Under the pieces are notes generated by a model. The model saw nothing but the letters and a program-made list of their open reading frames with translations, had not been told where the DNA came from and searched no databases. A stretch of 64,000 nucleotides of DNA from a phage, in assembly GCA_037431425.1 (NCBI GenBank), contig GCA_037431425.1_4129.1. One strand, given 5' to 3'. Below, in pieces: positions 3,017 through 31,693 of the stretch. The position numbers and the translations under genes were made by a program. Each line of letters starts with the position of its first letter. Within the stretch, counting starts at the first letter, position 1.

Positions 3017-3409
3017 ATGACTAAATCTGAACTATATGAAATGATAGATTTCATTTATGAAATGGTACAGGATGAAAAACACATCAATACTATTGGATCA
3101 GGTCCAAGACAAATTGGTAACCAAATGACATATTCTTTGTCCTTATGGTTACACCAACAATTCAATGTTGATTGTTTGTATTTCCGTCCTGATATTGGTG
3201 CATATTATTTTGTCAATTATGATGCACTAATGAAACAAAGCAAGCGACCAGTTGATGAATCATTTGTTACATACCCATTTTACCTTGCTGAATCAGAGGA
3301 AGATGAATTTCAAAAAGAAACCGTTTTAAGCAAAGGCGAAATTTGTATCCCTTACGCACTTAAAGATAAAATGATTTACATCACAGAAGTTATGAAAACA
3401 TGCTGGTAA
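3017..3409 (+). CDS. hypothetical protein with C-terminal EExFQxxTV module
   Basis: Track ORF; C-terminal EDEFQKETV motif shared with about 9 other ORFs here. Confidence 0.55.
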   Translation: MTKSELYEMIDFIYEMVQDEKHINTIGSGPRQIGNQMTYSLSLWLHQQFNVDCLYFRPDIGAYYFVNYDALMKQSKRPVDESFVTYPFYLAESEEDEFQKETVLSKGEICIPYALKDKMIYITEVMKTCW

Positions 3410-3456
3410 GTGCAATGAAACTCAGATATAATACTATGACTTACTAAGGAGAACAT

Positions 3457-4026
3457 ATGAACTTTATTAAATTCAACACATCTGAGTCAGAAGCATACTT
3501 TAATACAAATAATAAATTTAATATTATTCTTAAAGACGGAACGGTTGTTATCGGAGTATCATTGCTTTCATTTGATGGCGAAAAACTCGAAACTGTTTAT
3601 AAATTCACCAATCTTGATGGTGATTATTGGGATACATCAGATGTATCTAAAATTTGCACACATTATGTATTTGAATCTATTGAAGTTGGTGATGGCTGGG
3701 CATTGACCTGCAATGGTAATAAAGTATTTTCTGGTAACATATTTGGGGTAATTTCCAGTAAAGAAATAGTAGACCATCATCTTCATGTTCTCAATAATAA
3801 CGCCAACACTTATACACCTGATAATATCAAAATTCACGATATTGTAACATATATTGATTATAATGGTTTCAGACATAAAGCAATTGTAACTGAAATTAAA
3901 AAACCAAAAAATTATTTCGATCACGGTTTGATTGAAGTATATATGGTAGGTGGCGAAAAACAATACTTTGAACATTTCACTTATACTGGTTGGGATAGAT
4001 TCCTAACCGTTATTGAGGAATACTAA
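3457..4026 (+). CDS. hypothetical protein
   Basis: Track ORF; SD aaggaga upstream. Confidence 0.55.
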   Translation: MNFIKFNTSESEAYFNTNNKFNIILKDGTVVIGVSLLSFDGEKLETVYKFTNLDGDYWDTSDVSKICTHYVFESIEVGDGWALTCNGNKVFSGNIFGVISSKEIVDHHLHVLNNNANTYTPDNIKIHDIVTYIDYNGFRHKAIVTEIKKPKNYFDHGLIEVYMVGGEKQYFEHFTYTGWDRFLTVIEEY

Positions 4027-4027
4027 C

Positions 4028-4516
4028 ATGCCGATTCGTGGTGTACCAGACCCAATACGTGAAATTCTTAAGCACATTCGCATTGAAACACTAGAAGTTA
4101 ACATGCGTCGTTATAATATATATTACTTTAAAACTTCCGAAATGAGTTCTGTACAGATTGTCATTGGTACATCTATTAAGATTACTCGTGTACTTGATGG
4201 CAGTACTGACTTTGTTGAATACAACGTACTTACTAATAAAGTAACACATACATATAAATGGAGTGGATATAAAACTATTAAATATGAGTTTGACTTAGCT
4301 AGAACCGAAGAAGAACGATTCATGTTGAGTACTATAAATCCAGAAAACTATCCTGACATTGATACATTTTTGCTAATTTTAAAATTGTATAATAAAGCAA
4401 ATGAGAAAGCTAAAGAGTACAATAGAATCATGTATGAACGCAAAAAAGAACGTGTACAAAAAAGTTATGATCTGTATGATAACCCATACGTGAAATATAG
4501 TAAGGGAAAGAAATGA
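4028..4516 (+). CDS. hypothetical protein
   Basis: Track ORF 4013..4516 begins with TTG; ATG at 4028 preceded by GAGGA is the better start. Confidence 0.5.
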   Translation: MPIRGVPDPIREILKHIRIETLEVNMRRYNIYYFKTSEMSSVQIVIGTSIKITRVLDGSTDFVEYNVLTNKVTHTYKWSGYKTIKYEFDLARTEEERFMLSTINPENYPDIDTFLLILKLYNKANEKAKEYNRIMYERKKERVQKSYDLYDNPYVKYSKGKK

Positions 4517-4917
4517 ATAATGAAGTTCAAATTATCATTACTCCACCTATACAAAGTCTGGATGTAACCATTAGTGATTTTTTGGAAAAATACTATGAAT
4601 GGTTTAATGAAGATTCAGTCATTTATAACCATTCATTACCTGATGGTTTCGTTGAGCTTATTGAATTAAATGCCAAATCACTATACTTCTGTGTTGAATA
4701 CAATGATTATATGACAGATGAAGCATATCGTTTTCGTTGTACATTGTATCCTAACCATTTTTCCATTGGTTATAAAGACTATCAGTACTGCACCACAAAC
4801 TATAGTGTAGAGGAAGAATTTCAGTACAATTTACTTTATCCTGATTTAGATTATACGATTGCAGTACTGTTGACTAAAATCATGGATTTTTATAAAGATA
4901 AATATAATGCAGCCTAA
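4513..4917 (+). CDS. hypothetical protein
   Basis: Track ORF; overlapping start/stop with neighbours. Confidence 0.5.
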   Translation: MNNEVQIIITPPIQSLDVTISDFLEKYYEWFNEDSVIYNHSLPDGFVELIELNAKSLYFCVEYNDYMTDEAYRFRCTLYPNHFSIGYKDYQYCTTNYSVEEEFQYNLLYPDLDYTIAVLLTKIMDFYKDKYNAA

Positions 4918-5092
4918 GACATTCGATGAGTGGTATCAAATACATTACAATATAAATGCAGCAGATATATACTATTTTAAGCTTGAATTGTATATATCAT
5001 TGCGTGACCCAGTTGAGTACTATAACAACATTATCAATTGTGATGATTTTGGTACATATTTTAGTATTGCAGTTATGGATAAAATAAGATGA
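4907..5092 (+). CDS. hypothetical small protein
   Basis: Track ORF. Confidence 0.45.
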   Translation: MQPKTFDEWYQIHYNINAADIYYFKLELYISLRDPVEYYNNIINCDDFGTYFSIAVMDKIR

Positions 5093-5259
5093 CACACAAA
5101 GAATGGTTAGATGAACTAAAGTTCAAACATGATCATTTTGGCCTTGGTATACGCCAGAGTCATTATGATGTGTTAAAAGATAAACAACTTTTCAAATCAT
5201 TAGTACTTGATGAGGATAGTAATCACTGGTACATCTATGAGCTTGCGGTTAGAGATTAG
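5089..5259 (+). CDS. small protein of the MTHxEW family (56 aa)
   Basis: Manually found ORF below track cutoff; ATGA overlap at 5089; N-terminus MTHKEWLDE resembles the tandem ORFs at 6345-6831. Confidence 0.4.
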   Translation: MTHKEWLDELKFKHDHFGLGIRQSHYDVLKDKQLFKSLVLDEDSNHWYIYELAVRD

Positions 5260-5269
5260 AAGATATAGT

Positions 5270-5562
<293 letters not shown>

Positions 5563-5569
5563 TTTTTCA

Positions 5570-5597
5570 TTGACAACCTCAGTATATTTGCTATAAT
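5570..5597 (+). promoter_or_regulatory. sigma70-type promoter (TTGACA-N16-TATAAT)
   Basis: Consensus hexamers; precedes ORF 5632. Confidence 0.65.
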
Positions 5598-5631
5598 CAC
5601 TTCAGATGAATAAATCCACGAGGTATCCAAA

Positions 5632-5832
5632 ATGACAAAAGCAGAACTTGTTGCATTATTGGAATCATACCCTGATGATGCATGTATTGAAATTGTACAT
5701 ACTACACGACATTTTGACATTGAAGATGTAGTACGTTATAATGATAAAGGTGTACTAATCATGGAACTGTGTATTGGTGAAGTGAAAACTGTACCTGAAT
5801 CAGAAAAACGTAAAAAAATTAATCAGGAGTAA
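5632..5832 (+). CDS. hypothetical small protein
   Basis: Track ORF downstream of promoter at 5570; SD-like sequence upstream. Confidence 0.55.
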   Translation: MTKAELVALLESYPDDACIEIVHTTRHFDIEDVVRYNDKGVLIMELCIGEVKTVPESEKRKKINQE

Positions 5833-5836
5833 TATT

Positions 5837-6109
5837 ATGCATTTTGAAAAATTCAACACAAGTCGTGACACACGCATTGATGCTCTTTATGAAACCCAAG
5901 ACTCAATTAGTATTCGTACACGTAGTGGTGATGTATATCATGACTGTACTATTGGTTGGGAACAGGGAAGAACACGTAGTGCAGAATTCGATAACTATCG
6001 CTTCTACCAAGGGGACATCACAATCTGGCCTGAAGACGTAGAAGATATTGCAATTGAAGATGAACATAAAGATGAATTTATCAAATTTAATCCCGAAACC
6101 GAATCATAA
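5837..6109 (+). CDS. hypothetical small protein
   Basis: Track ORF; SD aggag upstream. Confidence 0.55.
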   Translation: MHFEKFNTSRDTRIDALYETQDSISIRTRSGDVYHDCTIGWEQGRTRSAEFDNYRFYQGDITIWPEDVEDIAIEDEHKDEFIKFNPETES

Positions 6110-6114
6110 ATAAC

Positions 6115-6239
<125 letters not shown>

Positions 6240-6246
6240 CAAAAGA

Positions 6247-6320
6247 CGGGGTATAGCACAATTGGATAGTGCAAGAGAATTCTAATCTCTAGGTTGGGGG
6301 TTCAAGTCCCTCTACCTCGG
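6247..6320 (+). tRNA. tRNA-Arg (anticodon UCU)
   Basis: Hand-folded: acceptor CGGGGTA/TACCTCG (one GU), D-stem GCAC/GTGC, anticodon stem AGAGA/TCTCT loop ATTCTAA, T-loop TTCAAGT. Confidence 0.75.
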
Positions 6321-6344
6321 CCTACTTCAATTAAAGGTTAAACC

Positions 6345-6509
6345 ATGACGCATGAAGAATGGATGAATGACATTAATTTTAGATATGCAGGTATCGGTAA
6401 CTGGAGAAAGTATCATTGGGAAATCATATCAGACCCAGCAGAATACGATAAACTTATGAATCATGAAGTGTATCCGTGGTTCTTTATTGAAATAATGGTA
6501 CGATTATGA
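6345..6509 (+). CDS. small protein, MTHEEWMNDINFRY family, copy 1 (54 aa)
   Basis: Manually found; SD aaaggtta; ATGA overlap with copy 2; near-identical N-terminus across three tandem copies. Confidence 0.5.
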   Translation: MTHEEWMNDINFRYAGIGNWRKYHWEIISDPAEYDKLMNHEVYPWFFIEIMVRL

Positions 6510-6666
6510 CACATGAAGAATGGATGAATGACATTAATTTTAGATATTCGGGTATCGGTAAATGGCTAAAGTATCATTGGGAATTCATTTCAGAGCCACA
6601 TCTGTATGATAAACTTATCAACGATTCTGCATATAAAATGTACTTAATTGAACTACTGGTACGAAC

Positions 6667-6670
<4 letters not shown>
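6506..6670 (+). CDS. small protein, MTHEEWMNDINFRY family, copy 2 (54 aa)
   Basis: Tandem paralog; ATGA overlaps on both sides. Confidence 0.5.
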
Positions 6671-6839
<169 letters not shown>

Positions 6840-6843
6840 AATC

Positions 6844-7284
<441 letters not shown>

Positions 7285-7312
7285 GTATCTTAACAACAGA
7301 AGGTATATTGAA

Positions 7313-7552
7313 ATGGGTAAGTATTTTGTGAGTTATAGTTATAATGTATCACGAAAGATTCCACGCGGTGACGGAATGGGATGGTCTTATGATGCATATA
7401 CTTTAAATGAGTCATGTATCATCGAATTACAAGAAAAAGACCTTGACATTTTAAAAATCAAACAATATATTCTTGATGTTGAATTGGCACATCGTACTGA
7501 TACCTATCCAGATGTAAACAACATCAGCATCTTAGTACTAACCAAAGTATAA
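7313..7552 (+). CDS. hypothetical small protein
   Basis: Track ORF 7283..7552 starts with TTG inside the promoter; ATG at 7313 with SD agaaggta is preferred. Confidence 0.5.
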   Translation: MGKYFVSYSYNVSRKIPRGDGMGWSYDAYTLNESCIIELQEKDLDILKIKQYILDVELAHRTDTYPDVNNISILVLTKV

Positions 7553-7622
7553 GATAAAAAGAACTTTACTAAATAATTCCACTGGAGATTAATATGTTTA
7601 AAGATGAACGTCCAGATTTGTA

Positions 7623-7661
<39 letters not shown>

Positions 7662-7667
7662 GAATTC

Positions 7668-8002
7668 CACAATCAGACGTATATGGTGTAAGTTACGTCG
7701 ATGCTATCCAGAACAAGATCTCTGGTACTCTAGGAAGTGGTGAATGTTAACCTAGACGGGTTTGATAATTGGACGATAGGCAATTATTACTTGACTAGCA
7801 GGTTGAAACTAGAGGTGACAGTCCTTCACCAAACTGGAAAGCCGGATGGACTTTTATTTAAAAGGGTAAGGCGTGGAAATATGTTTACTGTAGTTGCTTT
7901 TAGTAGCCTGTACGCCCCACGTCAAGGTAGTCGAAAGGCAAGTTAAAACGGGTGGTTATAAAGCTGAATTAACAGCGGCGTTTAAAAGCGTCACCATCCA
8001 TT
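7668..8002 (+). ncRNA. candidate structured non-coding transcript (or small basic protein)
   Basis: Promoter 7633..7661 upstream, T8 run at the end; locally GC-richer; track ORF 7737..7946 inside has a GTG start and unconvincing composition. Confidence 0.3.
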
Positions 8003-8023
8003 TTTTTAATTAAAGTTGGCTAT

Positions 8024-8390
<367 letters not shown>

Positions 8391-8401
<11 letters not shown>

Positions 8402-8420
8402 TATTCAGTACTGATATAAT
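8391..8420 (+). promoter_or_regulatory. sigma70-type promoter (TGGACA-N18-TATAAT) upstream of tRNA-Ser(GCU)
   Basis: CAGTACTG then TATAAT, 7 nt before the tRNA 5' end. Confidence 0.55.
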
Positions 8421-8426
8421 TAATTT

Positions 8427-8513
<87 letters not shown>

Positions 8514-8525
8514 TAAATTGTTCCA

Positions 8526-8612
<87 letters not shown>

Positions 8613-8662
8613 CTGATATTGTTATTATATGAGTTCTAACGATAATGAAACACTAGGAACAT

Positions 8663-8833
<171 letters not shown>

Positions 8834-8857
8834 ACGAAATTACAATAGGAAATTAAA

Positions 8858-9043
8858 ATGCAACTTTTAATTCTTTCAATATTGTATATTATTATAATGG
8901 TTCCGATATCAATACGTTTAATTACAGTTGAACGATTTTTATCGAAACATGGAAATAGATCTATGATATTTGTACCAATCGGGTTGATATTGTTTGGTAT
9001 ATTTTCATTTATAATGGGAATTAACGCTACATTCATTTCATAG
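8858..9043 (+). CDS. hypothetical small membrane protein
   Basis: Track ORF; hydrophobic; agga upstream; immediately after the tRNA cluster. Confidence 0.45.
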   Translation: MQLLILSILYIIIMVPISIRLITVERFLSKHGNRSMIFVPIGLILFGIFSFIMGINATFIS

Positions 9044-9052
9044 GAAACAAAT

Positions 9053-9310
<258 letters not shown>

Positions 9311-9412
9311 ATAAAAAGAACGAAAAGTAGACGGTCGTATTCAGTACTGAATCACCAGGGGAGGTTGTGATTCCCGATTCAGTAGCTTAAAAGCAGACCC
9401 GTATGTGCCTAA

Positions 9413-9465
<53 letters not shown>

Positions 9466-9466
9466 T

Positions 9467-9512
<46 letters not shown>

Positions 9513-9513
9513 T

Positions 9514-9647
<134 letters not shown>

Positions 9648-9649
9648 TA

Positions 9650-9833
<184 letters not shown>

Positions 9834-9913
9834 TAAATAATACAGTAAGATGGCCTCCCCTCCATATCATGAGAGTATAGAGACTTGTTGGTTATCTTAC
9901 TTTTAAACAAACT

Positions 9914-9987
9914 GCCTCAATAGCAAAATTGGTAATGCACACGTTTTGTAAGCGTGAGATTTTTCCGTTCGAGTCGGAATTGGGGCA
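9914..9987 (+). tRNA. tRNA-Thr (anticodon UGU), tentative
   Basis: Hand-folded: acceptor GCCTCAA/TTGGGGC (one GU), anticodon stem CACGT/GCGTG loop TTTGTAA, T-arm TTCCG-TTCGAGT-CGGAA; D-arm and variable loop slightly irregular. Confidence 0.55.
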
Positions 9988-10004
9988 CAAAATAAAGGCA
10001 CACT

Positions 10005-10421
10005 ATGACATACAATATTGTTAAAATGGTGAACTATGTATTAAAAAACAACTCATGGTCACTGCATGATGTACAATTAGAAGATATTGGTGAAGTTAGA
10101 GTATTTTGCTATGATGACGATTTGAACGAAACCACTGATTTGAGTAAATGTTTTAATATTTTTCTTGGTTATGAAATCAATAATCATTTTTATTCATTTG
10201 ATGTGTATTTTGAACGAGTTAAAATCAGAATTGCTAATGTAAATAGTGATTATTATGACACTAGAATTGAATTGAATTTTGATGATATAGATACTGAAGA
10301 AAAATTCTTTCAGTACTGTCTCGTAAACGATCTAAATGGATTGACATTTGAGGACATTAAAGCTATACTTAAAGTTCAAAGATTGATACCAGAAGAGGTT
10401 CTAAATCCCTTTAATGACTAG
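10005..10421 (+). CDS. hypothetical protein with C-terminal EEKFFQY module
   Basis: Track ORF; paralog-like to 10414..10779. Confidence 0.55.
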   Translation: MTYNIVKMVNYVLKNNSWSLHDVQLEDIGEVRVFCYDDDLNETTDLSKCFNIFLGYEINNHFYSFDVYFERVKIRIANVNSDYYDTRIELNFDDIDTEEKFFQYCLVNDLNGLTFEDIKAILKVQRLIPEEVLNPFND

Positions 10422-10779
10422 TTTAATAACTCGTATAATGCAAGATGTTCGTAAGAATCTTTATACTGGTAATTTTGATGATCCTAACATAAAAATATTA
10501 TGTTATGATGGATTCACACTGGTACATCCATCAGAATCTAATAATATATACATAGCATATACTTCTCCTAATCTTTTGTATCAATTTGATTTATATAGTA
10601 CATTAGCGAAAGTAATCTTAGATGTTTCAAAGGAGCCAATTTTTATAGCAGTACGTGATATTGAGTACACAGAAGAATCATTATTCCAGTACTCAACGAT
10701 AAATGACATTGGTGGGTTGACATTGGATGAGGTTAATGCTATAATAGCAGTCTCACGTTTGATTGATACTCACAATTAG
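10414..10779 (+). CDS. hypothetical protein with C-terminal EESLFQYSTI module
   Basis: Track ORF; C-terminus alignable with 10005..10421. Confidence 0.55.
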   Translation: MTSLITRIMQDVRKNLYTGNFDDPNIKILCYDGFTLVHPSESNNIYIAYTSPNLLYQFDLYSTLAKVILDVSKEPIFIAVRDIEYTEESLFQYSTINDIGGLTLDEVNAIIAVSRLIDTHN

Positions 10780-10788
10780 GAGATTCAT

Positions 10789-10980
10789 ATGTTCTGGAAT
10801 TTATTATGCTTGTTTGGTCGTACATTAGTTCTTGCAATTATTCATACACCTGGCATTCGTAATTATGTTTCTTATGAATTTAAGAAAAATTATCACAACA
10901 ATACTGAAGATCGTGCAACTAAGATGTGCAAAGACTTCAATGTAGATGTTCCACCATTCAAGAAGTACGAGGATGAATAA
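10789..10980 (+). CDS. hypothetical small membrane protein
   Basis: Track ORF; SD aggag upstream. Confidence 0.5.
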   Translation: MFWNLLCLFGRTLVLAIIHTPGIRNYVSYEFKKNYHNNTEDRATKMCKDFNVDVPPFKKYEDE

Positions 10981-11264
10981 TGGAATTTATTGTTGCACCT
11001 GATGAACTAAAAACATTCACGTTCCGAGACAATAACAATTATCCTTATACAAATCATTCATTGAATTCATTACATGTTATTTCAATCATTGCATCTGAAT
11101 ACAGAGACAATCCATGTATTGATTTTAAAACCACTGATGGTGAATATACATGGGTGATCCCAAAAGATAAATATAGTTATCAAGGGGCAGTAGAAATTCG
11201 CGACTCGATTCTACAGCAAATTGAAGATGGACATACTCATCCTAAACTAAACATTCAGTACTGA
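10980..11264 (+). CDS. hypothetical protein
   Basis: Track ORF; ATAATGG overlap with upstream stop. Confidence 0.5.
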   Translation: MEFIVAPDELKTFTFRDNNNYPYTNHSLNSLHVISIIASEYRDNPCIDFKTTDGEYTWVIPKDKYSYQGAVEIRDSILQQIEDGHTHPKLNIQY

Positions 11265-11380
11265 AATCGCTTATCAGAATAACTTCTAATAATAATTATT
11301 TTTCTCTACTATCTAACAGTATTTTACAAGAATTCTGTATTTTTGAAGTTGATTTTTGAACTTCTTATATGTTATACTTA

Positions 11381-11411
11381 CGGCTGATTCAATTATGAAT
11401 CAGCCTTTTTT
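11381..11411 (+). terminator. rho-independent terminator
   Basis: GGCTGATTCA-ATTATG-AATCAGCC followed by T6. Confidence 0.65.
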
Positions 11412-11429
11412 CTTATGAGGATTAATATA

Positions 11430-11846
11430 ATGAACAGAGAAGTTATTAGTTTAATGGATGAGTATATAAACCAAACGCATCGTTTGATATTTTTAAATGA
11501 ATTCGAGTCCAGAACAACGTATCATTCTGGAGAATATGAGATAACGACTGGATCATTTCTGAACGGATATATGGAGTTTTTTGAACAAAGCGATAATGTT
11601 TTTATTTCCATATCTGAAAAACATGGTGATGGTTGTGTTATTGATGTATGGCCCAATAAAGTAGAGATTGATACTTCACACAAAATTGTAATTGATGTAG
11701 ACGAATCATTATATGATTTAACTGAAGATATGTATATGCAGCTAAATTTTGTATATGACCTAACTAATATAAGTTATTGTAATTTAAGTAAATTATTTTA
11801 TATTTGTGGTGTATTACATAATAATACACAACAAAATAAAGGATAA
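11430..11846 (+). CDS. hypothetical protein with C-terminal EDMYMQL module
   Basis: Track ORF 11415..11846; ATG at 11430 preceded by gagga is preferred. Confidence 0.5.
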   Translation: MNREVISLMDEYINQTHRLIFLNEFESRTTYHSGEYEITTGSFLNGYMEFFEQSDNVFISISEKHGDGCVIDVWPNKVEIDTSHKIVIDVDESLYDLTEDMYMQLNFVYDLTNISYCNLSKLFYICGVLHNNTQQNKG

Positions 11847-11854
11847 ACATTTAA

Positions 11855-12259
11855 ATGTTGAAAATTCCACAACAGGCATTATCTATACTAATTGAAAATG
11901 GTGTAATATTTTCTGAAGGATGTAGTTCATTCTATACATGTGATGTGGACCAGTACACATTTGAATACCGTTCATTTAAAAATACATTGAGTGTTTCGTG
12001 TGAAGCTTCTGACAACATTGTACTTGTTGTTTCTTTCTATGGTGTACCAAAATTCTTCATTGATATATATTATGATTCTTTTAAGATACAAACATACGAC
12101 CATTTTCTTGGTGAAGTGCTCTTGCAAATGCCAATTGAACATGTTACTATAAATGAAGATATGTTCTTTCAGCTATCTACGGTATATGATATGTGTGGTT
12201 TGACATTTGACAACATTAATGGTATTTTTGAAATTGCCAGAACCCTACGAGGAAGATGA
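11855..12259 (+). CDS. hypothetical protein with C-terminal EDMFFQLSTV module
   Basis: Track ORF. Confidence 0.55.
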   Translation: MLKIPQQALSILIENGVIFSEGCSSFYTCDVDQYTFEYRSFKNTLSVSCEASDNIVLVVSFYGVPKFFIDIYYDSFKIQTYDHFLGEVLLQMPIEHVTINEDMFFQLSTVYDMCGLTFDNINGIFEIARTLRGR

Positions 12260-12260
12260 T

Positions 12261-12668
12261 ATGGTCAAAATTTTAAGTGACAATACAGTTGATATTGTTA
12301 TTGATGTACTTGAAAACAGTAATACATTTGAGAAGAAACACAGTACTGTATACTTCGGTAAAGATTGTTGGCTGAACTATACATCTGATAGTTCATTTAT
12401 AATTCATGTTGAAAAGGGTGATATTGGATTAACGATACATGCTTCCTATAATAAAACAATCACTGTTATTGCCAACAAGCCAAGTTCTTCTGATTTCTGG
12501 GATATTATTGATGATTGTGATCATTTCATGTCAACATTCTATAAAACAGAAGAAGAACATTTCATGGATAGTACTGTTCGAGAATTACAAATTCCATTTA
12601 AATTAATGAAAGCGGCAAGGGATTTTATTTCAAAATACAAAAAAACAGGAGTATGTGATGCAATTTAA
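12261..12668 (+). CDS. hypothetical protein with C-terminal EEEHFMDSTV module
   Basis: Track ORF 12207..12668; ATG 12261 after gaggaag is preferred. Confidence 0.5.
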   Translation: MVKILSDNTVDIVIDVLENSNTFEKKHSTVYFGKDCWLNYTSDSSFIIHVEKGDIGLTIHASYNKTITVIANKPSSSDFWDIIDDCDHFMSTFYKTEEEHFMDSTVRELQIPFKLMKAARDFISKYKKTGVCDAI

Positions 12669-13119
12669 TGGTAATGTTTCTAAAGTTGCTTTAGTATTTG
12701 AAAATTGTGAGTGTGTGTATATTGATGTAAAGGATGTTTTATGGATGCATATTGGTGATGAGAAGACACTTTGTAGTCGTTTTTCGAATGGACTGACAAT
12801 TAGTACTGGTATTGGTGAGTTTGGAATTGCGTTACGTAGTAATACTCCAGCGGATTTTATGGACAATACCACACTGTTGGAACGTTTAAAAATGCGTGAC
12901 GTTACACATGTTTATCTATATGATAATCAAGACGTAGAACGTCATTATGTTGTTGAATGGGCTGATTATAACATGAATGGGCAATATTCCGTAAACCAGC
13001 GTGTACAAATTACACCAGGTGGTAATATTGTATTTGTTAGTACAACAGGTAAATTAATCAACGTAGATGATAAAAATATCGATCTATTTACGTCATACGA
13101 TAGTTATAATTTGAGGTGA
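12655..13119 (+). CDS. hypothetical protein
   Basis: Track ORF. Confidence 0.5.
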   Translation: MMQFNGNVSKVALVFENCECVYIDVKDVLWMHIGDEKTLCSRFSNGLTISTGIGEFGIALRSNTPADFMDNTTLLERLKMRDVTHVYLYDNQDVERHYVVEWADYNMNGQYSVNQRVQITPGGNIVFVSTTGKLINVDDKNIDLFTSYDSYNLR

Positions 13120-13123
13120 TATT

Positions 13124-13486
13124 ATGAACTTGTGGATATTTACACTTATTTGTTGTATTACTATTGTACTTTGTCGTCTAATTCATGTATACTCATATCA
13201 TAAAGCGTTACGTATTGAGCAAGAGACTTACTTAAAAAAACAGCCACCGAAGAAGTTACCATCACCGTATGGGTTGAAACGTGAAATGCACTCCAAAAGC
13301 AAAGAGTGGGGATATGCAATCACAAAAAATGGGTATATTTACACAGCGAGTAATGGTTATTTTCAAATTCACCACAAATTAGAGGTAGCAGTTAAGATTT
13401 TGTGGGAAATGGAGGATATTGGTGGTTATGAGCGTACTAAGTTTGAATACATATCAGATGATCCAGGAACTTCGCGAGAAACATGA
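13124..13486 (+). CDS. hypothetical protein with N-terminal membrane helix
   Basis: Track ORF. Confidence 0.5.
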   Translation: MNLWIFTLICCITIVLCRLIHVYSYHKALRIEQETYLKKQPPKKLPSPYGLKREMHSKSKEWGYAITKNGYIYTASNGYFQIHHKLEVAVKILWEMEDIGGYERTKFEYISDDPGTSRET

Positions 13487-13631
13487 TATAATTATCGATG
13501 TTGAGAAGAAGGAAGTTGTTATGAAAAAGCAAGAATATCGCATATTAGATAACTTCCGTCTAAAATCATTTATAATGAAGTTCTGTACAGATGAACATCT
13601 TACTGGACGAGCAATACGTAAGGAGTTGTAA
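13458..13631 (+). CDS. hypothetical small protein, start uncertain
   Basis: Track ORF 13419..13631 overlaps upstream gene; internal in-frame ATG chosen. Confidence 0.3.
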   Translation: MIQELREKHDIIIDVEKKEVVMKKQEYRILDNFRLKSFIMKFCTDEHLTGRAIRKEL

Positions 13632-20760: not shown

Positions 20761-21726
20761 GTGAAAAAACTTGATTTGAATACAATTGCAGATGAAGTTC
20801 TGGATGAATGCTTTGGTAATGAAGAAGTGAATACGCTGGATGCGTTAGAACCAGTTCAAGAAAAAGATAACATTGACGAGAAAAATAATGGTAATTTCAA
20901 GTTTAATATTAGTCTTAAGCGACCAGCAAATGTAACAAATGAAGATATTATTCGTGATATTCAAGCAGGTATTAACGTAAAGAAAAATACTGAACTATTA
21001 GTTCGTTATAATTACGGTTTGATTATTGATGTTGCAAGTAAATGCACGTGTTATATTCCATTTGAAGATAAGATTTCATATGGCATTGAGGGATTCATGC
21101 GAGCATTAAAAACATTTGACCTTAGTAAGAATGTAAAGTTCGCTACGTATGCATCGTCAAGTATCTATATGACTGTATACAATGAAAGCTCAGATGCTAA
21201 TCATCTGGTCCACTTCCCTCGTTACATGAGTGTTAATAAGATACAAGTGAAACGCTTCTGTCATAATTATGAGCGTCAGCATGGTTGTCGTCCTACACCT
21301 GAAATTATTTCTGAAGAGACTGGTATTGAAATCCAGCACGTTAAGAATTGTTTATTATTCCAAAGTGAATATACTTCACTGGATGCACCATTGGATGGTG
21401 TTTCTGATGGGACGATGAGTGATATTCTGCATTCATCTGAAGGTGATTATAATCTTAATGTTGACAGTATTCGTGCACCGTTGCGTTATACCATCAACGA
21501 ACTAACTAATGAGTTGAGTGCTAAGGAATGTGAGATTATTCAACGTGTTCATGGATTAGGTGAATTTAATCCTGAAACACTACGTGAAATTGCTGATAGT
21601 GGTTTTATTGATGACAATGGTAAGTGTGTAAAATCCAGATCTTCGGTTCATCGTAAATACAGTGATGCTCTTAAGAAACTCAAGAAATTAGTGCTCGCTA
21701 AAGGGTACGAATACGAAGATTTCTAA
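20761..21726 (+). CDS. sigma70-family RNA polymerase sigma factor
   Basis: Region-2-like stretch LLVRYNYGLIIDVASK...GIEGFMRALKTFD...KFATYASSSI and region-4-like HTH near the C-terminus (ECEIIQRVHGL...TLREIA...KYSDALKKLKK); GTG start with strong SD aggagaag; terminator follows. Confidence 0.75.
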   Translation: MKKLDLNTIADEVLDECFGNEEVNTLDALEPVQEKDNIDEKNNGNFKFNISLKRPANVTNEDIIRDIQAGINVKKNTELLVRYNYGLIIDVASKCTCYIPFEDKISYGIEGFMRALKTFDLSKNVKFATYASSSIYMTVYNESSDANHLVHFPRYMSVNKIQVKRFCHNYERQHGCRPTPEIISEETGIEIQHVKNCLLFQSEYTSLDAPLDGVSDGTMSDILHSSEGDYNLNVDSIRAPLRYTINELTNELSAKECEIIQRVHGLGEFNPETLREIADSGFIDDNGKCVKSRSSVHRKYSDALKKLKKLVLAKGYEYEDF

Positions 21727-24259: not shown

Positions 24260-24568
24260 ATGTTTCAAACTAACACTCAAGGTTTTGTAATCATTGATTT
24301 GAATCAAAACAGCGGTAATTGGATGAAACCTACTGACGCATGTATGCAGTTTGATTTCTTAGGTTACAGAATTAGTGTAAGCACTGGTGCTTCTGTACTG
24401 AGGGGTGGTTGTATTGTTGAACATCTGGTAACTGATCCAGAAGGTCGTGAGTATGAAATCGCAGGTTCAGTACAAGATGCCATTATGTTTGTATGTCAGC
24501 GTGAAATGAATGGTTCGAATTCAAATGCACTGACTCATGCTCTTTCTCAAGAAGTGGAGATTCGTTAA
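24260..24568 (+). CDS. hypothetical protein
   Basis: Track ORF downstream of promoter 24139..24166; SD gagga. Confidence 0.6.
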   Translation: MFQTNTQGFVIIDLNQNSGNWMKPTDACMQFDFLGYRISVSTGASVLRGGCIVEHLVTDPEGREYEIAGSVQDAIMFVCQREMNGSNSNALTHALSQEVEIR

Positions 24569-24819
24569 TGAAATACATTGTAGCAGTACTCGTCGCATTT
24601 TTACTCACTGCATGTGATGCTTCAACCAAAGAACGCACAAGTGATTTTATTCTCCCGACTGAATTAAAAGAAGCCGGATGTAAGATTTATCGTATGCAAA
24701 AGGACGGTGCTGATGTAACCTTGTATACAGTTTATTGCCCTAATGCAAATACCAGTACTGGATACACTAGCGGTAAAACACGAGTCAATACTTCAGTGAT
24801 TAATGGAGTACAACAATGA
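24568..24819 (+). CDS. putative lipoprotein
   Basis: Track ORF; N-terminus MKYIVAVLVAFLLTAC carries a lipobox-like LTAC. Confidence 0.55.
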   Translation: MKYIVAVLVAFLLTACDASTKERTSDFILPTELKEAGCKIYRMQKDGADVTLYTVYCPNANTSTGYTSGKTRVNTSVINGVQQ

Positions 24820-25184
24820 GCCTTGATACAACCCGTGCAACAGATTTATTAACTCGTCTGAATGATGAAGAATATCTTGCTGAAATAAAGTACAAGCTTG
24901 ACAAACTGGTTCGAAGTGCTGAAGTAATTGAAGTTGAAGGTCACTTACCAATGGATCAATTCCATACGTTCAACGAAGAGATGGTTTATTATCCTAATGA
25001 AATTTGGATTGAGTGGCAACATTGGACTGGTAAAACACTACGTATTGAAGGGTATTGTGTGAAGTATGAACGTGATCCTGGTTATGTGACAAAAACTTTG
25101 TCAATTTGGTGTACAAAAACACATGAACTCGTTGAGGTGAATTTGAATTATATGAATGGCTTCCGTTGGGGTGATGTTAAATGA
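24816..25184 (+). CDS. hypothetical protein
   Basis: Track ORF. Confidence 0.5.
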   Translation: MSLDTTRATDLLTRLNDEEYLAEIKYKLDKLVRSAEVIEVEGHLPMDQFHTFNEEMVYYPNEIWIEWQHWTGKTLRIEGYCVKYERDPGYVTKTLSIWCTKTHELVEVNLNYMNGFRWGDVK

Positions 25185-25456
25185 TTAAAAAACTCTTGAC
25201 GGTGTTCTTTGTATTCAGTACAATGTTTCTTACAGCATGTAACGATGACGGCAGGTTAAGTGCAAAAGACTTAGCTCGATTAGATTGTGCATACACAGGT
25301 AAGTCTTTTATTAACGAGTATGAGGTATGCACACAATCAGGTCGTATCTGTGGTGGTTGGGAGAAACGTCAGGAGCGATTGTATGTATATGAATGTCCTG
25401 GACAACTCAACAAAGTACTAAGCACACAAAAACTTGTTTATGATAAGGTTGAATAA
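25181..25456 (+). CDS. putative lipoprotein
   Basis: Track ORF; N-terminus MIKKLLTVFFVFSTMFLTAC carries a lipobox-like LTAC. Confidence 0.55.
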   Translation: MIKKLLTVFFVFSTMFLTACNDDGRLSAKDLARLDCAYTGKSFINEYEVCTQSGRICGGWEKRQERLYVYECPGQLNKVLSTQKLVYDKVE

Positions 25457-25822: not shown

Positions 25823-26020
25823 ATGTTTACTTTATATCTCGCAGTGGTTCTTACTAATGGTGAAATCACTCGTACTATTGGTGAAGGTGTATATAAAACG
25901 CCTGAGCAATGTTACTCTGCTACACATTGGCCTCGTGATAGTGATGATACTCGTACCGAATTTAAATGCATGAAAGTAAAAGGTGATTTTGTTAACCTTA
26001 AAGTTATTGAGGATAAATGA
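25823..26020 (+). CDS. hypothetical small protein
   Basis: Track ORF; SD aggaa. Confidence 0.5.
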   Translation: MFTLYLAVVLTNGEITRTIGEGVYKTPEQCYSATHWPRDSDDTRTEFKCMKVKGDFVNLKVIEDK

Positions 26021-26535
26021 TGAATATTAATGAGTTGTTAATATTATTGTTTAATCGTGGAAATGATGTAAGACGTACTATCTATCAAGACAAAATACAC
26101 ATTGAAACTGATAAATGTTATGGTAAAACAACTCATGAGATTTTAAAACCGAACGGTAAACGATATGCCGACGTATGTTTTCATGAAAGAAGTGATGGTA
26201 GTGACATAATCAGTACTGATATTGTGTTTTATGCTAGATCATCGGCAGAATCGTATGAAATCGAACTTGTATATTGCCCTAGTTCAAAAGCACACAATAA
26301 GCGTCAGATATTGTATGATGTTTATTCACCACCAGGTGTAGCTGAACATTTTGTTATCGATTACAGTACTGAAGAAAGTGTGTTTCAACAGAGTTTGATT
26401 CATAACTTCCAGTTGAACGATCCAAATGTACCAAAGATGTTCAAACTACTCGATGTAATTGATGTTGATTTTGAATTTGTTATGTGCATCAGAACTTCTT
26501 TAATCGATGAATTTATGGAATTACTTAATATATGA
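26017..26535 (+). CDS. hypothetical protein
   Basis: Track ORF. Confidence 0.5.
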   Translation: MMNINELLILLFNRGNDVRRTIYQDKIHIETDKCYGKTTHEILKPNGKRYADVCFHERSDGSDIISTDIVFYARSSAESYEIELVYCPSSKAHNKRQILYDVYSPPGVAEHFVIDYSTEESVFQQSLIHNFQLNDPNVPKMFKLLDVIDVDFEFVMCIRTSLIDEFMELLNI

Positions 26536-27214: not shown

Positions 27215-27877
27215 ATGTTAGTAAATCTCAACTTTATCACTTCTCCTGATTGGGCATTGCGTGGTGTTTCTTTGAACTTTAAAGAAACTCATTTTGAACA
27301 CATTGGTGATTGTACTTTAGTTAATGCTACATTTGATCCACATCATCCTTTTTGGGCTAAAATTCACGATCCAAATGTAAACAATAGTACATCAGTCATG
27401 ACTATTGTTCAAACGAAACATCCTGGTATTCTTGCAGGCTACCGTCCTGAACATGCAATTGAACACTTCACTGATTACGATGTGGTTGATGAATATCCAA
27501 TGATCCATAAAGATGGAAGTTTATACACATCTGAAGACGTTCGTGCTATCTTTAATAGTACTGATGATATTCTACCAAGTGGACGAGCACGTCCTAAGTC
27601 TTATCTTATGCATTCATCTTATGGTGTAGCAGACACACTTGAGCAGATTATGAAGAAGTTCAAGAACCTAATTGAAGGTCCAGAAGAAATTGTTTTATGC
27701 TATCATCCAGTACTGAAATCTGACCAACCAGAGAGTGGTGGGTGGCGTTGGCATAAGAATGGTGAGTACATCGGAACTAAGCGTAGTAAAGAACGCTTTG
27801 AGTACTTGTATGATGAGCCAGATGTTGATGTTGTTTTGTGTTATAATTTTCTTAAGGTGAAAAAGAAATGTATCTAG
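27215..27877 (+). CDS. hypothetical protein (220 aa)
   Basis: Track ORF; SD gagga. Confidence 0.6.
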   Translation: MLVNLNFITSPDWALRGVSLNFKETHFEHIGDCTLVNATFDPHHPFWAKIHDPNVNNSTSVMTIVQTKHPGILAGYRPEHAIEHFTDYDVVDEYPMIHKDGSLYTSEDVRAIFNSTDDILPSGRARPKSYLMHSSYGVADTLEQIMKKFKNLIEGPEEIVLCYHPVLKSDQPESGGWRWHKNGEYIGTKRSKERFEYLYDEPDVDVVLCYNFLKVKKKCI

Positions 27878-28110
27878 TATTGAATTTTGTAGTTGTGTTT
27901 TTGTTTATGTTATATCCTACACTTGTAGCATTAGCCACTAAACGAACATGGACACACATTATTACTGTTTTCTTTCTTAACGTTGTTCTTGTATTTGTGT
28001 CTATTATTATTCCAATAAGCTTTACATATACTGACATTGTATTTGTATTACTCTTTGTGTTCAGTTATCTTATGCTCATTGATGAAAATAATATTGACAA
28101 ACGTTCTTAG
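27868..28110 (+). CDS. hypothetical membrane protein
   Basis: Track ORF; two hydrophobic helices. Confidence 0.5.
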   Translation: MYLVLNFVVVFLFMLYPTLVALATKRTWTHIITVFFLNVVLVFVSIIIPISFTYTDIVFVLLFVFSYLMLIDENNIDKRS

Positions 28111-28121
28111 AACTGTATAAT
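28094..28121 (+). promoter_or_regulatory. sigma70-type promoter (TTGACA-N16-TATAAT)
   Basis: Consensus hexamers with extended TG. Confidence 0.65.
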
Positions 28122-28164
28122 AGTTACTGTAGTTTAAAAACACTTTATTTTGAGGATATGAAAT

Positions 28165-28485
28165 ATGTTATCAGTATTGTTTTCGATTCCATCCCTAGTT
28201 CTGATTTGGCTTATTGTTTACGAATTCTTTATCACTGATGTTAATGATAAAAAAGAGTTTGTACAGTTGTTTCTGCTAGATTCACCGATTGTCCGAATTT
28301 ATTATACTATCGTTTGTGTTTCAGTACTTGTATGGATTGTGAGTTTTATTTTTCCATTGGGATCATTAGTATATACATTGAATTTTATGGAAAATGTAGT
28401 GGCTATTCTATGGCTAATTGCAGCATGGTATGCAGGTAATGTTAGTATTTGGATTGATATTTTAAAATCTAAATTCACAAAATAA
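28165..28485 (+). CDS. hypothetical membrane protein
   Basis: Track ORF downstream of promoter 28094..28121; SD gagga. Confidence 0.55.
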   Translation: MLSVLFSIPSLVLIWLIVYEFFITDVNDKKEFVQLFLLDSPIVRIYYTIVCVSVLVWIVSFIFPLGSLVYTLNFMENVVAILWLIAAWYAGNVSIWIDILKSKFTK

Positions 28486-28568
28486 TATTTAATAGTAAAA
28501 AAATACCCCTATGATATTAAATACTTGTATACTATATGTACAAATGTATTTTTCTATAGGGGTTTGTT

Positions 28569-28928
28569 ATGGGTAGATATATAAAATTAATAGCATTTGC
28601 TTGCTTATTATTTTCATGTTTTAGTTATGGTTCGTCATCTGTAACACAATGTCGTAGTTCGAATGGAACTATATATTCATTGACAAACGATCCGAATAAT
28701 GGTAAAAACATTGTTATCAATGGTGTAACTTATCGTGTTAAAGCTCAGAGTACCATCGGTAATAAAAAGATAACGACTTATGTAAATGATTCTGGAACAA
28801 TTGCGAATGTTATATTAATCGTTAACCCAATAACAGGTAATGGTGATATCTATATTGTGATTTATTTGGATACAGCATTACAACGAGAACTAAATTTGGA
28901 TGAATTAAATCTGCACTGCAAAATATAG
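28569..28928 (+). CDS. putative secreted protein
   Basis: Track ORF; signal-peptide-like N-terminus. Confidence 0.5.
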   Translation: MGRYIKLIAFACLLFSCFSYGSSSVTQCRSSNGTIYSLTNDPNNGKNIVINGVTYRVKAQSTIGNKKITTYVNDSGTIANVILIVNPITGNGDIYIVIYLDTALQRELNLDELNLHCKI

Positions 28929-28938
28929 GATATAATAT

Positions 28939-29316
28939 ATGCTCAATTCTATTGTGATTTGGTTTTTAAGTATTCCAATTATTTTATCTTTTGTAATTTC
29001 TATTTGTATGATTTTATATTTTATTTTTGCTGGGGTGTATTTTATTTTTACAAACAAAGATATTTTTATTTCTAAACTTGATTCTATATTTGCTTGTGAG
29101 TCGTTAGCTTATAATTTGTGGATAATTTGTTCTTGTATCATGGGTATGGCATTCCTACTACACGAATTTAATGTCATTGATGATAATGTTGTATATATTA
29201 GTACTGGGTTAGCATTATATCCAGCTACATGGTACTTGATTTATGTTGTCGATATATGGTATAGTACTTACAAAGAATACCAGTGTAAAAAGTCATCAAA
29301 AGTTGAGAGGAAATGA
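28939..29316 (+). CDS. hypothetical multi-pass membrane protein
   Basis: Track ORF. Confidence 0.5.
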   Translation: MLNSIVIWFLSIPIILSFVISICMILYFIFAGVYFIFTNKDIFISKLDSIFACESLAYNLWIICSCIMGMAFLLHEFNVIDDNVVYISTGLALYPATWYLIYVVDIWYSTYKEYQCKKSSKVERK

Positions 29317-29866: not shown

Positions 29867-29892
29867 CTTCGGTCAGCCTTTTTTGTTATAAT
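29858..29892 (+). promoter_or_regulatory. PeSL-like module 1: terminator hairpin with embedded -35 TTGACT plus downstream -10
   Basis: GGTTGAC-TTCG-GTCAGCC stem-loop, T-run, then TATAAT 18 nt after TTGACT. Confidence 0.65.
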
Positions 29893-29920
29893 TATTTTAT
29901 ATTCTAATGGAGTTTAAATT

Positions 29921-30361
29921 ATGTTAGTATATCGTTTTGAACTTAAATTTAGTTACATTGAACCTGATTTGAAACCAGCAACAAATGTTGGTCCATTTGC
30001 ACGGTATTCTTCAAAATATAGTACTAAAAATGGTTTTGACCGTTTGTATATGTCTACGCCTACGCAGTTCCAACCTGAACCAACTGATGATGGGATCTAT
30101 TCAATCAAATATGGATGGGCATTTGGCTGTCAAAGTTTGAATGATTTGTTTCGGTTCTTTACTATGGACTTGGGTAAATTACATCGTGCTGGGTTTGCTA
30201 TTTCCGTATATGACGTACCTGATAATCACGTTGATATTGGACGAAACCAGGTTCAGTTCCATTATAGGAGTGCAACTTTGGTTCGTATTATGTCTATTAA
30301 GGAAGCAAAGGATGAGTACCGCCATAGTAAAAGAATAATACATGAGGCTGTATATGGATAA
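29921..30361 (+). CDS. hypothetical protein
   Basis: Track ORF downstream of PeSL-like promoter; SD ggag. Confidence 0.55.
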   Translation: MLVYRFELKFSYIEPDLKPATNVGPFARYSSKYSTKNGFDRLYMSTPTQFQPEPTDDGIYSIKYGWAFGCQSLNDLFRFFTMDLGKLHRAGFAISVYDVPDNHVDIGRNQVQFHYRSATLVRIMSIKEAKDEYRHSKRIIHEAVYG

Positions 30362-30698
30362 GACTCAAATAGAATTAAAAAAATTTGTATCGTTCTATCT
30401 ACCAAATGATCCACGTAATTCACAAAAAGATTTTGAATATTATAATATCCTAAGTAAACAGTTAATGAGAAAGTTTCAACAGTGTTTAAGTATATTCAAT
30501 ACTGATGGTAGACGTAGATACCGAATCATTTCAATGAATGATGAAAACGCAAACTACTTTGATTATGATGTTGTTTTTAGAGCATATAATGATGACCGAA
30601 TTAAATTAAATTATGATCAAATAATATTTGATCTAAGTGCTATATCTGTTATAATTACTCACATCGCCGAGATTAATGGTTTTAAAGAGTGGTATTGA
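30354..30698 (+). CDS. hypothetical protein
   Basis: Track ORF 30342..30698; ATG 30354 is an alternative start. Confidence 0.45.
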   Translation: MDKTQIELKKFVSFYLPNDPRNSQKDFEYYNILSKQLMRKFQQCLSIFNTDGRRRYRIISMNDENANYFDYDVVFRAYNDDRIKLNYDQIIFDLSAISVIITHIAEINGFKEWY

Positions 30699-30712
30699 AT
30701 AGAGGACAATAT

Positions 30713-30979
30713 ATGAAGCTTAAATTGCAATATAATGGATTTACTTTACGTAATGATACTGAGTTTGTCAATCGTTCACCTGGTGCTGAACTTTTTTTGC
30801 GAGAGATGAACATTCCTTTCATCATCACTACTGTAGGAGATCGTGAAGTTTTACAATACGCAGAGCATCCTATTATTGATGTTCCTTGGTACTCTGAACA
30901 TATGTACATGGATATGGCACGTCGCTACAACTGTAAGTTCATAGTAGAAGGTGATAAAATTACAGTACAATTTAAATGA
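30713..30979 (+). CDS. hypothetical protein
   Basis: Track ORF 30689..30979; ATG 30713 after agagga is preferred. Confidence 0.5.
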   Translation: MKLKLQYNGFTLRNDTEFVNRSPGAELFLREMNIPFIITTVGDREVLQYAEHPIIDVPWYSEHMYMDMARRYNCKFIVEGDKITVQFK

Positions 30980-31120
30980 TGTGAATTGAAATGATCATTT
31001 AAGCATCATTGTAAATGTAGAAATGGTGTACATGAAGTATAATATAAAAAGGGAAATCATATATGGTTTCCCCTTTTTCTTATTACGTACAATTAAGGAC
31101 ATATATTAATTGAGGAAATT

Positions 31121-31693
31121 ATGAATCGTAAAGGTCGTTTTAAGGTATCAAAGAAGAACAAAAGTTCTAGATTTAAGCCTATAGTTTTAACCGTTAAAGC
31201 CAAAGCGGAATTAACTGCACTTAGTAAAAAGATCATTTCATCTAAGATTAAAGTATCATACGTAAATTCGGTAAAATATCGAAAGGTTAAACCACAAGAC
31301 CTACTCATTTCACTTATATTTGAACGTAATGATTTTGAGATATCAGTGGATGATTATAGAGCCTATAATGCTGGTTTCATTAATGTTACTTGTACTACAG
31401 AACTAACTGAATTAGAACATTTGTCATGTATAGTAAATCTCGATAAAGGTGTAGTGAAATACCACTTTGTACATTTTACTAATATTAATGATGGAAAGGG
31501 TGTACAATCCAGAACTATAGTACCTACATGTGATGTGACTAAATTATCAAAGCTCAATGACGAAGAATATTTTCAAGAAAGTACTGTAACTGAATATATA
31601 GATGAAATTATAGCAACTTACAAAGAATGTATATGGGTTTTAAATGCAATGAAGCCTAAATTATGTTTGATGAATATTGTACGTGATTTATGA
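31121..31693 (+). CDS. hypothetical basic protein with C-terminal DEEYFQESTV module
   Basis: Track ORF; SD gaggaaa. Confidence 0.55.
   Translation: MNRKGRFKVSKKNKSSRFKPIVLTVKAKAELTALSKKIISSKIKVSYVNSVKYRKVKPQDLLISLIFERNDFEISVDDYRAYNAGFINVTCTTELTELEHLSCIVNLDKGVVKYHFVHFTNINDGKGVQSRTIVPTCDVTKLSKLNDEEYFQESTVTEYIDEIIATYKECIWVLNAMKPKLCLMNIVRDL

Follow-up and report, generated by a model that had tools for sequence, protein, structure and literature searches.

Why do 13 small phage proteins with dissimilar N-terminal parts share one short motif near their C-termini? The question is raised by a 64,000-nucleotide stretch of phage DNA (contig GCA_037431425.1_4129.1 of GenBank assembly GCA_037431425.1; hereafter the window), in which 13 open reading frames (ORFs) of the + strand carry the motif T-E-E-x-[FY]-F-Q-x-S-[TL]-[VIL]-x-[DEN]. 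A sequence-only reading of this DNA had taken the motif for a portable domain or tag at the C-terminus of small proteins that have nothing else in common, possibly a targeting signal. The analysis presented here makes it probable that the carriers belong to one huge, divergent paralogous family, presumably of host-interaction binders, found in phages of the RaK2/121Q/GAP32/CBB type, of which the motif is a signature helix. The family is most likely an undescribed, clade-specific expansion of small host-interaction proteins.

By its sequence matches, the window is part of an Asteriusvirus-like jumbo phage. Positions 3000-13000 are ~92% identical (megablast) to Escherichia jumbo phages CMSTMSU, UE-S1, slurp01, ph0011 and others (348-386 kb), in mosaic pieces with only 40-67% coverage. 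The window genes were assigned by tblastn to Asteriusvirus (121Q, PBECO4, phAPEC6); RaK2-like phages of Klebsiella have distant copies. The window also contains six tRNA genes and dozens of small ORFs on the same strand. Orphans make up more than 80% of the genes in these 350-kb phages (PMC7247149), and the gene total of phAPEC6 is 551.

The motif and its carriers

The members found in the window are given below with their length in amino acids (aa), their form of the motif and their score in an iterated hidden Markov model (HMM), together with matches to a regular expression (regex), PHROGs families (phrog) and isoelectric points (pI) where these were recorded.

3017..3409, + strand: 130 aa; degenerate SEEDEFQKETV; 26.9 bits, E 4e-8; phrog_32367 (unknown function); pI 4.67
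4028..4516, + strand: 162 aa, overlooked earlier; TEEERFMLSTI; 35.9 bits; regex match; phrog_22160; alternative TTG start at 4013
4513..4917, + strand: 134 aa; weak motif VEEEFQYNLL; 26.4 bits; phrog_33143
6903..7256, + strand: 117 aa; TEEEYFQMSTV (DNA ~7149-7184); 44.8 bits
8024..8401, + strand: 125 aa; degenerate DEADEFQKRTV; 36.2 bits; phrog_38341
10005..10421, + strand: 138 aa; TEEKFFQYCLV; 47.4 bits
10414..10779, + strand: 121 aa; TEESLFQYSTI; 42.6 bits
11415..11846, + strand: 143 aa; TEDMYMQLNFV; 49.6 bits; alternative start at 11430
11855..12259, + strand: 134 aa; NEDMFFQLSTV; 49.4 bits; BLASTP links to 10414, 10005 and 11415
12219..12668, + strand: 149 aa; TEEEHFMDSTV; 41.9 bits; phrog_24027
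26017..26535, + strand: 172 aa, overlooked earlier; TEESVFQQSLI; 40.2 bits; regex match
31121..31693, + strand: 190 aa with a basic N-terminal extension; NDEEYFQESTV; 20.6 bits, E 4e-6; orthologue of phAPEC6 gp039c
57908..58573, + strand: 221 aa with a long N-terminal extension, overlooked earlier; QEELFMYSTV; 33.4 bits; orthologue of phAPEC6 gp544c

All peptides quoted in the sequence-only reading were found at the ORFs named there, each of which carries the motif or a degenerate form of it. Its count of about ten carriers was too low, as three had been overlooked, including 57908..58573, which lies outside the range that it had considered (3017-31693). The start at 12219, in place of the internal start at 12261 taken earlier, is favored by the orthologue P0038. 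Another ORF, 13591-13974, resembles the members by eye and was left out of the count because it scores only 6.0 bits.

The enrichment of the motif lies far above that in shuffled sequences: a loose regex matched 11 ORFs, where 1000 residue shuffles gave 0.16 on average, and a strict regex matched 8 ORFs against 0.003. All of these matches were in coding frames of the + strand; the three - strand frames had none. When an HMM of the C-terminal 40 residues was built with one copy left out, the omitted copy (6.3-33.6 bits) always ranked first among ~227 other ORFs of the window, each of which scored 6.2 bits or less; this test is partly circular, as the seeds had themselves been selected by the motif. 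An independent cross-genome check was provided by an HMM trained on the window copies alone, which detected, in Klebsiella phage RCIP0023, a 40-kb locus with 10 matching annotated genes (E 8e-9 to 5e-5). Further members were thus recovered by searching phage proteomes with a C-terminal HMM, as had been foreseen, in RCIP0023 as well as in phAPEC6. Iteration of the HMM yielded 42 members across three phages and separated the 13 members of the window (20.6-49.6 bits) from the next ORF (6.7 bits). Full-length profile-profile comparisons between subfamilies gave E-values of 2e-5 to 7e-4, with a signal that came almost entirely from the motif region.

Four members of the window (10005, 10414, 11415 and 11855) are full-length paralogues of one another by BLASTP, as exemplified by 10005 and 10414 (E 2e-13 over 99 residues) and by 11415 and 11855 (E 6e-5 over 102 residues). 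The members are mostly acidic, with a median pI of 4.69 versus 7.73 for neighboring ORFs. Ten of the 13 have a pI of 4.2-5.0 and a net charge of -8 to -14, and the other three are basic; one of these, 4028..4516, owes its pI of 9.35 to a Lys-rich C-terminal extension.

Conservation, predicted fold and extent of the family

The consensus of 76 non-identical copies reads T (60%), E (78%), E (75%), x, F/Y, F (98%), Q (86%; M in 13%), x, S (90%), T (65%) or L (30%), V/I/L, x and D/E/N, with one of these last three residues present in 82% of the copies. The motif is situated at a rather uniform distance from the N-terminus (median of 105 residues) and ~35 residues (range 29-85) from the C-terminus, always within the C-terminal third of the protein. 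A tail of 20-30 further residues had been counted as part of the shared module; such a tail does exist (median of 35 residues after the Phe), but it shows no sequence conservation. Comparison with orthologues from phAPEC6, JNE01 and RCIP0023 revealed identities of 95, 69 and 52%, respectively, in the 13-residue motif, 86, 42 and 26% in the rest of the C-terminal part, and 81, 38 and 28% in the N-terminal part. Since divergence beyond the motif is as rapid as in the N-terminal part, the conserved unit is a short motif rather than a 40-residue domain, and in these alignments the conserved island between orthologues is ~13 residues long. Synonymous codons vary within it (TTT and TTC for Phe, CAA and CAG for Gln, both AGY and TCN for Ser), and a conserved DNA element was rejected on this ground; by this codon evidence, the motif is conserved at the protein level. 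As estimated from the same three comparisons, the members evolve somewhat faster than neighboring genes: their orthologue identities are 80 versus 85%, 46 versus 61% and 36 versus 42%. At 11415, 11855 and 12219, the alleles share only 39-60% identity with those of phAPEC6, compared with ~85% for the flanking genes.

The observation that the N-terminal parts differ was borne out at the sequence level by phmmer, iterated HMM and profile-profile comparison. Searches with the N-terminal parts in phmmer linked only orthologues and a few paralogues, and the iterated N-terminal HMM stalled with no homology signal between subfamilies. Structure prediction was carried out with AlphaFold2 for two members. 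The model of 10414 (predicted local distance difference test score, pLDDT, 84; predicted template modeling score, pTM, 0.80) contains helix 4-15, six strands, helix 87-100 (the motif) and helix 104-114. That of 6903 (pLDDT 83, pTM 0.75) contains helix 3-14, strands 18-22, 26-35, 43-52, 57-66 and 69-79, helix 84-93 (the motif) and helix 100-116. The two models have the same order of elements despite the lack of N-terminal sequence similarity, and in both of them the motif helix directly follows the last strand of a single compact domain. Because of this common order, the motif is predicted to form an integral helix within a single small alpha/beta domain. The predictions place this helix together with the N-terminal part in one domain and not in a separate unit. 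The concept of a portable C-terminal domain or tag on unrelated proteins is not supported, given this predicted integral helix, the limitation of conservation to ~13 residues and the single architecture described below.

Family-averaged propensities agree with the models: a beta-leaning segment precedes the motif (-66 to -24) and a strong amphipathic-helix signal follows it (+15 to +27). In the models, T-E-E has the look of a helix start (N-cap and first turn), and the positions with Q/M, T/L and V/I/L exchanges look like core-packing positions. In our view, the motif provides the keystone helix of a small alpha/beta domain, as modeled, that all members share. BFVD searches with both models returned relatives in phages UB, CBB, GAP32, RaK2 and Yersinia fHe-Yen9, and no clear relative of the fold was found among solved structures.

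The size of the family was estimated in phAPEC6, whose whole genome was assembled from nine pieces and scanned by HMM in all six-frame ORFs. This census identified 51 ORFs at E<0.01 and 56 at E<0.1. The main coding strand carries all of them, and no shuffled decoy scored below 0.01; 51-57 members correspond to ~9-10% of the 551 genes. One array of 20 copies, at 35.5-71.3 kb of the record, is the counterpart of the window and its left flank, another at about 289-318 kb holds about 30 copies, and a few isolated copies occur elsewhere. A single metagenome contig contains 13 members in 17.8 kb. All members gathered amount to 159 proteins of 47-246 aa, which fall into 100 clusters at 40% identity.

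The distribution of the family was examined by several searches. A DNA pattern for T-E-E-x-F-F-Q-x-S-T was found at 11 loci in 2.9 million IMG/VR contigs, 10 of which are in contigs of 345-378 kb, including genomes of RaK2, GAP32 and 121Q size. The sole match outside the ~350-kb contigs is an ORF of 246 aa (353-1093 of the 24.5-kb contig L009), with TEETFFQASTV within residues 155-178 and a score of only 14 bits; this match may be due to chance, or the ORF may be a distant member from some other, or fragmentary, virus. The HMM consensus matched only 337-366 kb phages of Erwinia, Salmonella and Escherichia in tblastn. A profile search of 1.84 billion representative proteins, with a sensitivity limit of roughly >=35 bits, gave 21 significant matches, all of 87-222 aa with the motif at the same C-terminal position, and no fusion or other architecture was present among them. 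By these searches, the family is clade-restricted and, as far as detected, has a single architecture.

Public resources do not unite these proteins. Pfam has no family for the members, searches of PADLOC and of PDB sequences gave nothing meaningful, and word-indexed homologue searches returned close orthologues only. PHROGs splits the members into at least 16 families of unknown function (phrog_17453, 24941, 23322, 24321, 24510, 12674, 27549, 36582, 38195, 34619, 32367, 22160, 33143, 38341, 35192 and 24027), whose cross-matches are confined to the C-terminal motif region; the present analysis unites them on the basis of motif, HMM and a common predicted fold.

Multigene families presumed to interact with the host are a feature of large DNA viruses, such as MGF110, MGF360 and MGF505 of African swine fever virus (ASFV) and the ankyrin/PRANC proteins of poxviruses. 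Bacillus phage G carries a ~35-copy zinc-ribbon expansion (PMC7824862). Like the proteins described here, these are tandem, fast-diverging paralogues that fill a sizeable part of a large viral genome; they differ in that their folds and motifs are unrelated to those of the present small, single-domain, acidic bacteriophage proteins. In the RaK2 report, nearly 10% of the gene products are described as paralogues (PMC3622015), and in the CBB report 22 ORFs are (PMC5259590). Both phages belong to the same clade and display the same phenomenon of gene duplication, whereas the single family described here accounts alone for 51-57 ORFs of phAPEC6. Neither the family nor its motif or size is described in the searched passages of the RaK2 and CBB papers, in jumbo-phage reviews or in the searchable Asteriusvirus literature. 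The family is best classed as a new and very large example of the lineage-specific multigene families of large viruses.

Expression, virion content and possible functions

The members are embedded in a region rich in promoter-like sequences. The + strand of the window contains 12 perfect TTGACA-N16-18-TATAAT sites and the - strand contains none, against a chance expectation roughly estimated at ~0.1 per strand. The sites and two neighboring virion-protein genes are as follows.

1072, 1619, 5570, 5714, 9591, 10717, 15965, 17801, 24139, 28094, 36725 and 61028 (starts), + strand: perfect sigma-70 sites
9591..9618, + strand: perfect TTGACA-N16-TATAAT upstream of tRNA-Thr and of the 10005-12668 run of members
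6844-6871: near-perfect promoter-like TTGACT-N16-TATAAT, 32 nt upstream of ORF 6903 (promoter scan)
13989-14774, + strand: orthologue of virion protein gp078c (29.7 kDa), embedded among family members; no Pfam match
14817-15971, - strand: orthologue of virion protein gp077 (42.9 kDa), embedded among family members; no Pfam match

With their same-strand arrays and consensus sigma-70 promoters, the members are most likely transcribed early by the host RNA polymerase. The equivalent region of phage CBB, with short ORFs, RpoD-like promoters and a sigma factor, is read as a set of early host-takeover genes in its description (PMC5259590). A sigma-70-family sigma factor is encoded in the window at 20761-21726. 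Terminator-like hairpins are ~3x commoner in positions 1-16000 than in shuffles (16 versus 5.3). One of them, a bidirectional hairpin at 14787-14812, flanks 14817-15971, which is one of the few - strand genes in this part of the window.

Mass spectrometry has detected 62 proteins in the phAPEC6 virion (PMC7247149, Table 1). These 62 include the neighbors gp077 and gp078c, but not one of the 51-57 members that the family has in this phage. A role in capsid targeting, as envisaged in the sequence-only reading, is contradicted by these published proteomic data, and the absence of members from the virion argues against it.

The following scenario is the most probable account of these observations. 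The members would be small (~115-220 aa), mostly acidic proteins of ~350-kb jumbo myoviruses, all with a single order of elements: an N-terminal helix, a 5-6-stranded antiparallel sheet, the motif helix and a final amphipathic helix. The motif helix would begin with Thr as N-cap and two Glu in its first turn, followed by F-Q/M-x-S-T/L-V/I/L as core packing. Repeated tandem duplication and rapid divergence would have erased all similarity save that of the central motif helix, and because divergence spared this helix alone, the proteins would look like unrelated N-termini with a common C-terminal module. Produced early from long same-strand arrays under sigma-70 promoters and not packaged in virions, they would act as stoichiometric binders or inhibitors of host proteins in the infected cell, in take-over or counter-defence. 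The variable sheet and loops would provide different specificities, and the expansion would reflect an arms race or host-range pressure. The promoters, the CBB parallel, the non-virion status, the acidity and the fast divergence all fit a set of early cytoplasmic binders or inhibitors.

Several points weigh against this scenario. Among eight subfamilies, profile-profile (hhalign) scores of the N-terminal parts were no better than those of control families, so that N-terminal homology across subfamilies is deduced indirectly. The common fold is derived from only two AlphaFold2 models, built on shallow alignments that included paralogues and compared by order of elements and not by direct superposition; the other four models of each run scored lower. 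The BFVD searches did not cross-validate the fold, because a single weak entry was all that their two match lists had in common. Alternatively, a binding site could explain why the two Glu and Gln/Ser are so highly conserved. Early expression is read from the promoter consensus, absence from the virion proteome is compatible with low-abundance packaging, and the binder or inhibitor role in host take-over or counter-defence is one that we infer.

If the conserved polar residues did mark a binding site, the proteins could be adaptors with a shared fold, in which the motif helix docks all members onto one partner and the variable rest recruits different targets, by analogy with the ankyrin/PRANC proteins of poxviruses, an explanation that we regard as possible and rather doubtful. 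It would account well for the sharpness of the conservation island, which holds even between orthologues (95/69/52% in the motif versus 81/38/28% for the rest), and for the conserved polar residues (E 78%, E 75%, Q 86%, S 90%, D/E/N 82%). Candidate partners are a host hub protein or the phage's own ClpP/Clp-ATPase, both components of which are annotated in the phAPEC6 record, outside the window.

176659-178947 of the phAPEC6 record: Clp ATPase, gp246c
263744-264439 of the phAPEC6 record: ClpP subunit, gp353c

However, a specific polar interface explains the replacement of Gln by Met (13%) and of Thr by Leu (30%) less well than buried packing does, T-E-E is a generic signature of a helix N-cap and first turn, and the docking partners are candidates only. 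That an invariant helix T-E-E-x-F-F-Q-x-S-T-V-x-D docks ~50 early proteins per genome into one machine, be it a host hub or the phage Clp protease, is an unlikely proposal. If true, it would represent the first large modular adaptor array in a bacteriophage, akin to the poxvirus PRANC/F-box proteins and the ASFV multigene families, and one of the main factors behind host range and anti-defence in RaK2-like jumbo phages.

Much less probable is a portable C-terminal domain or targeting signal, for the capsid or for secretion, added to unrelated small proteins. The N-terminal sequences without detectable relation and the constant location of the motif in the C-terminal third speak for it, but the motif is not terminal (29-85 residues from the C-terminus), conservation is limited to 13 residues, both models pack it as an internal helix in one domain, the 1.84 billion proteins revealed one architecture with narrow sizes, and the 62 virion proteins include no member. 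RaK2-like phages are distant relatives of T4, whose capsid targeting sequences are likewise short peptides on differing small phage proteins. The T4 signal is N-terminal, is cut by the prohead protease and delivers its cargo into virions. Here, by contrast, the motif is an internal helix of the C-terminal third and its carriers are absent from the phAPEC6 virion proteome; a T4-like capsid targeting signal was thus rejected on the position of the motif (median 105 residues from the N-terminus) and on virion proteomics. A more specific version of a host-interaction role, in which the members form an array of acidic DNA mimics or anti-restriction decoys like Ocr, ArdA or Arn, appears very improbable. 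Strong acidity in 10 of the 13 members and the position of the genes in a putative early region are in its favor, but three members are basic, acidity is common in phage early proteins, and neither sequence or fold similarity to a known mimic nor a DNA-like charge geometry was found. Finally, there is almost no chance that the motif is an artefact of composition, a conserved DNA or RNA element, or a protease site of the tobacco etch virus (TEV) type, E-x-x-Y-F-Q|S. The genome is AT-rich, so that codons for Glu, Phe and Gln are frequent, and the motif bears a superficial likeness to ENLYFQ|S; nevertheless, shuffles yielded 0.16 matches where 11 were observed, the whole-genome census was free of decoys, and synonymous codons vary, including both serine codon families. 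A TEV/3C-type site was rejected since the residue after Q is variable (L, Q, Y, M) with Ser one position later, contrary to the P1' rule, in a segment predicted to be helical.

If the carriers are indeed one divergent family, ~50 orphans per genome (~1 gene in 10) reduce to one superfamily with a simple diagnostic motif, and annotators gain a signature that can be searched by HMM. As putative early proteins that are experimentally tractable, the members are likely to control host take-over, counter-defence or host range in phages that are being developed for therapy against E. coli, Klebsiella, Salmonella and plant pathogens.

Other features of the window

Several further gene groups are present in the window.

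47291-55969, - strand: seven tandem paralogues of ~370-450 aa with an RCC1-like repeat domain (PF25390/PF13540)
5089-5259, 6345-6509, 6506-6670 and 6667-6831, + strand: second mini-family, 54-56 aa, starting with MTH(E/K)EW
43776-46556, + strand: eight back-to-back ORFs of 104-123 aa
39988-41205, + strand: 405-aa protein with a GmrSD_N (DUF262) domain and a weak DndB match
24568-24819, 25181-25456 and 27868-29316, + strand: several small ORFs with lipoprotein-like N-termini, and several predicted multi-pass membrane proteins

The sign of the GC skew flips across the RCC1-like block, whose phAPEC6 counterparts (gp001-010 and gp549-551) are annotated as RCC1 repeat or 'DNA condensation' and occur in the virion proteome. 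The second mini-family, for which no Pfam match was obtained, consists of three direct tandem copies and one upstream copy: 6345 and 6506 are 68% identical, and 5089 matches the other copies at E 1e-7 to 5e-9. The eight back-to-back ORFs lack the FQxST motif; 43776 and 44117 are paralogues (51% identical), the sole pair shown to be related among the eight. The protein encoded at 39988-41205, in the putative early region, is by its domain matches a phage-borne relative of a type IV restriction/DNA-modification-associated family. The lipoprotein-like N-termini (for example LLTAC and FLTAC, in which Cys comes after a hydrophobic stretch) and the predicted multi-pass membrane proteins were recognized by eye.

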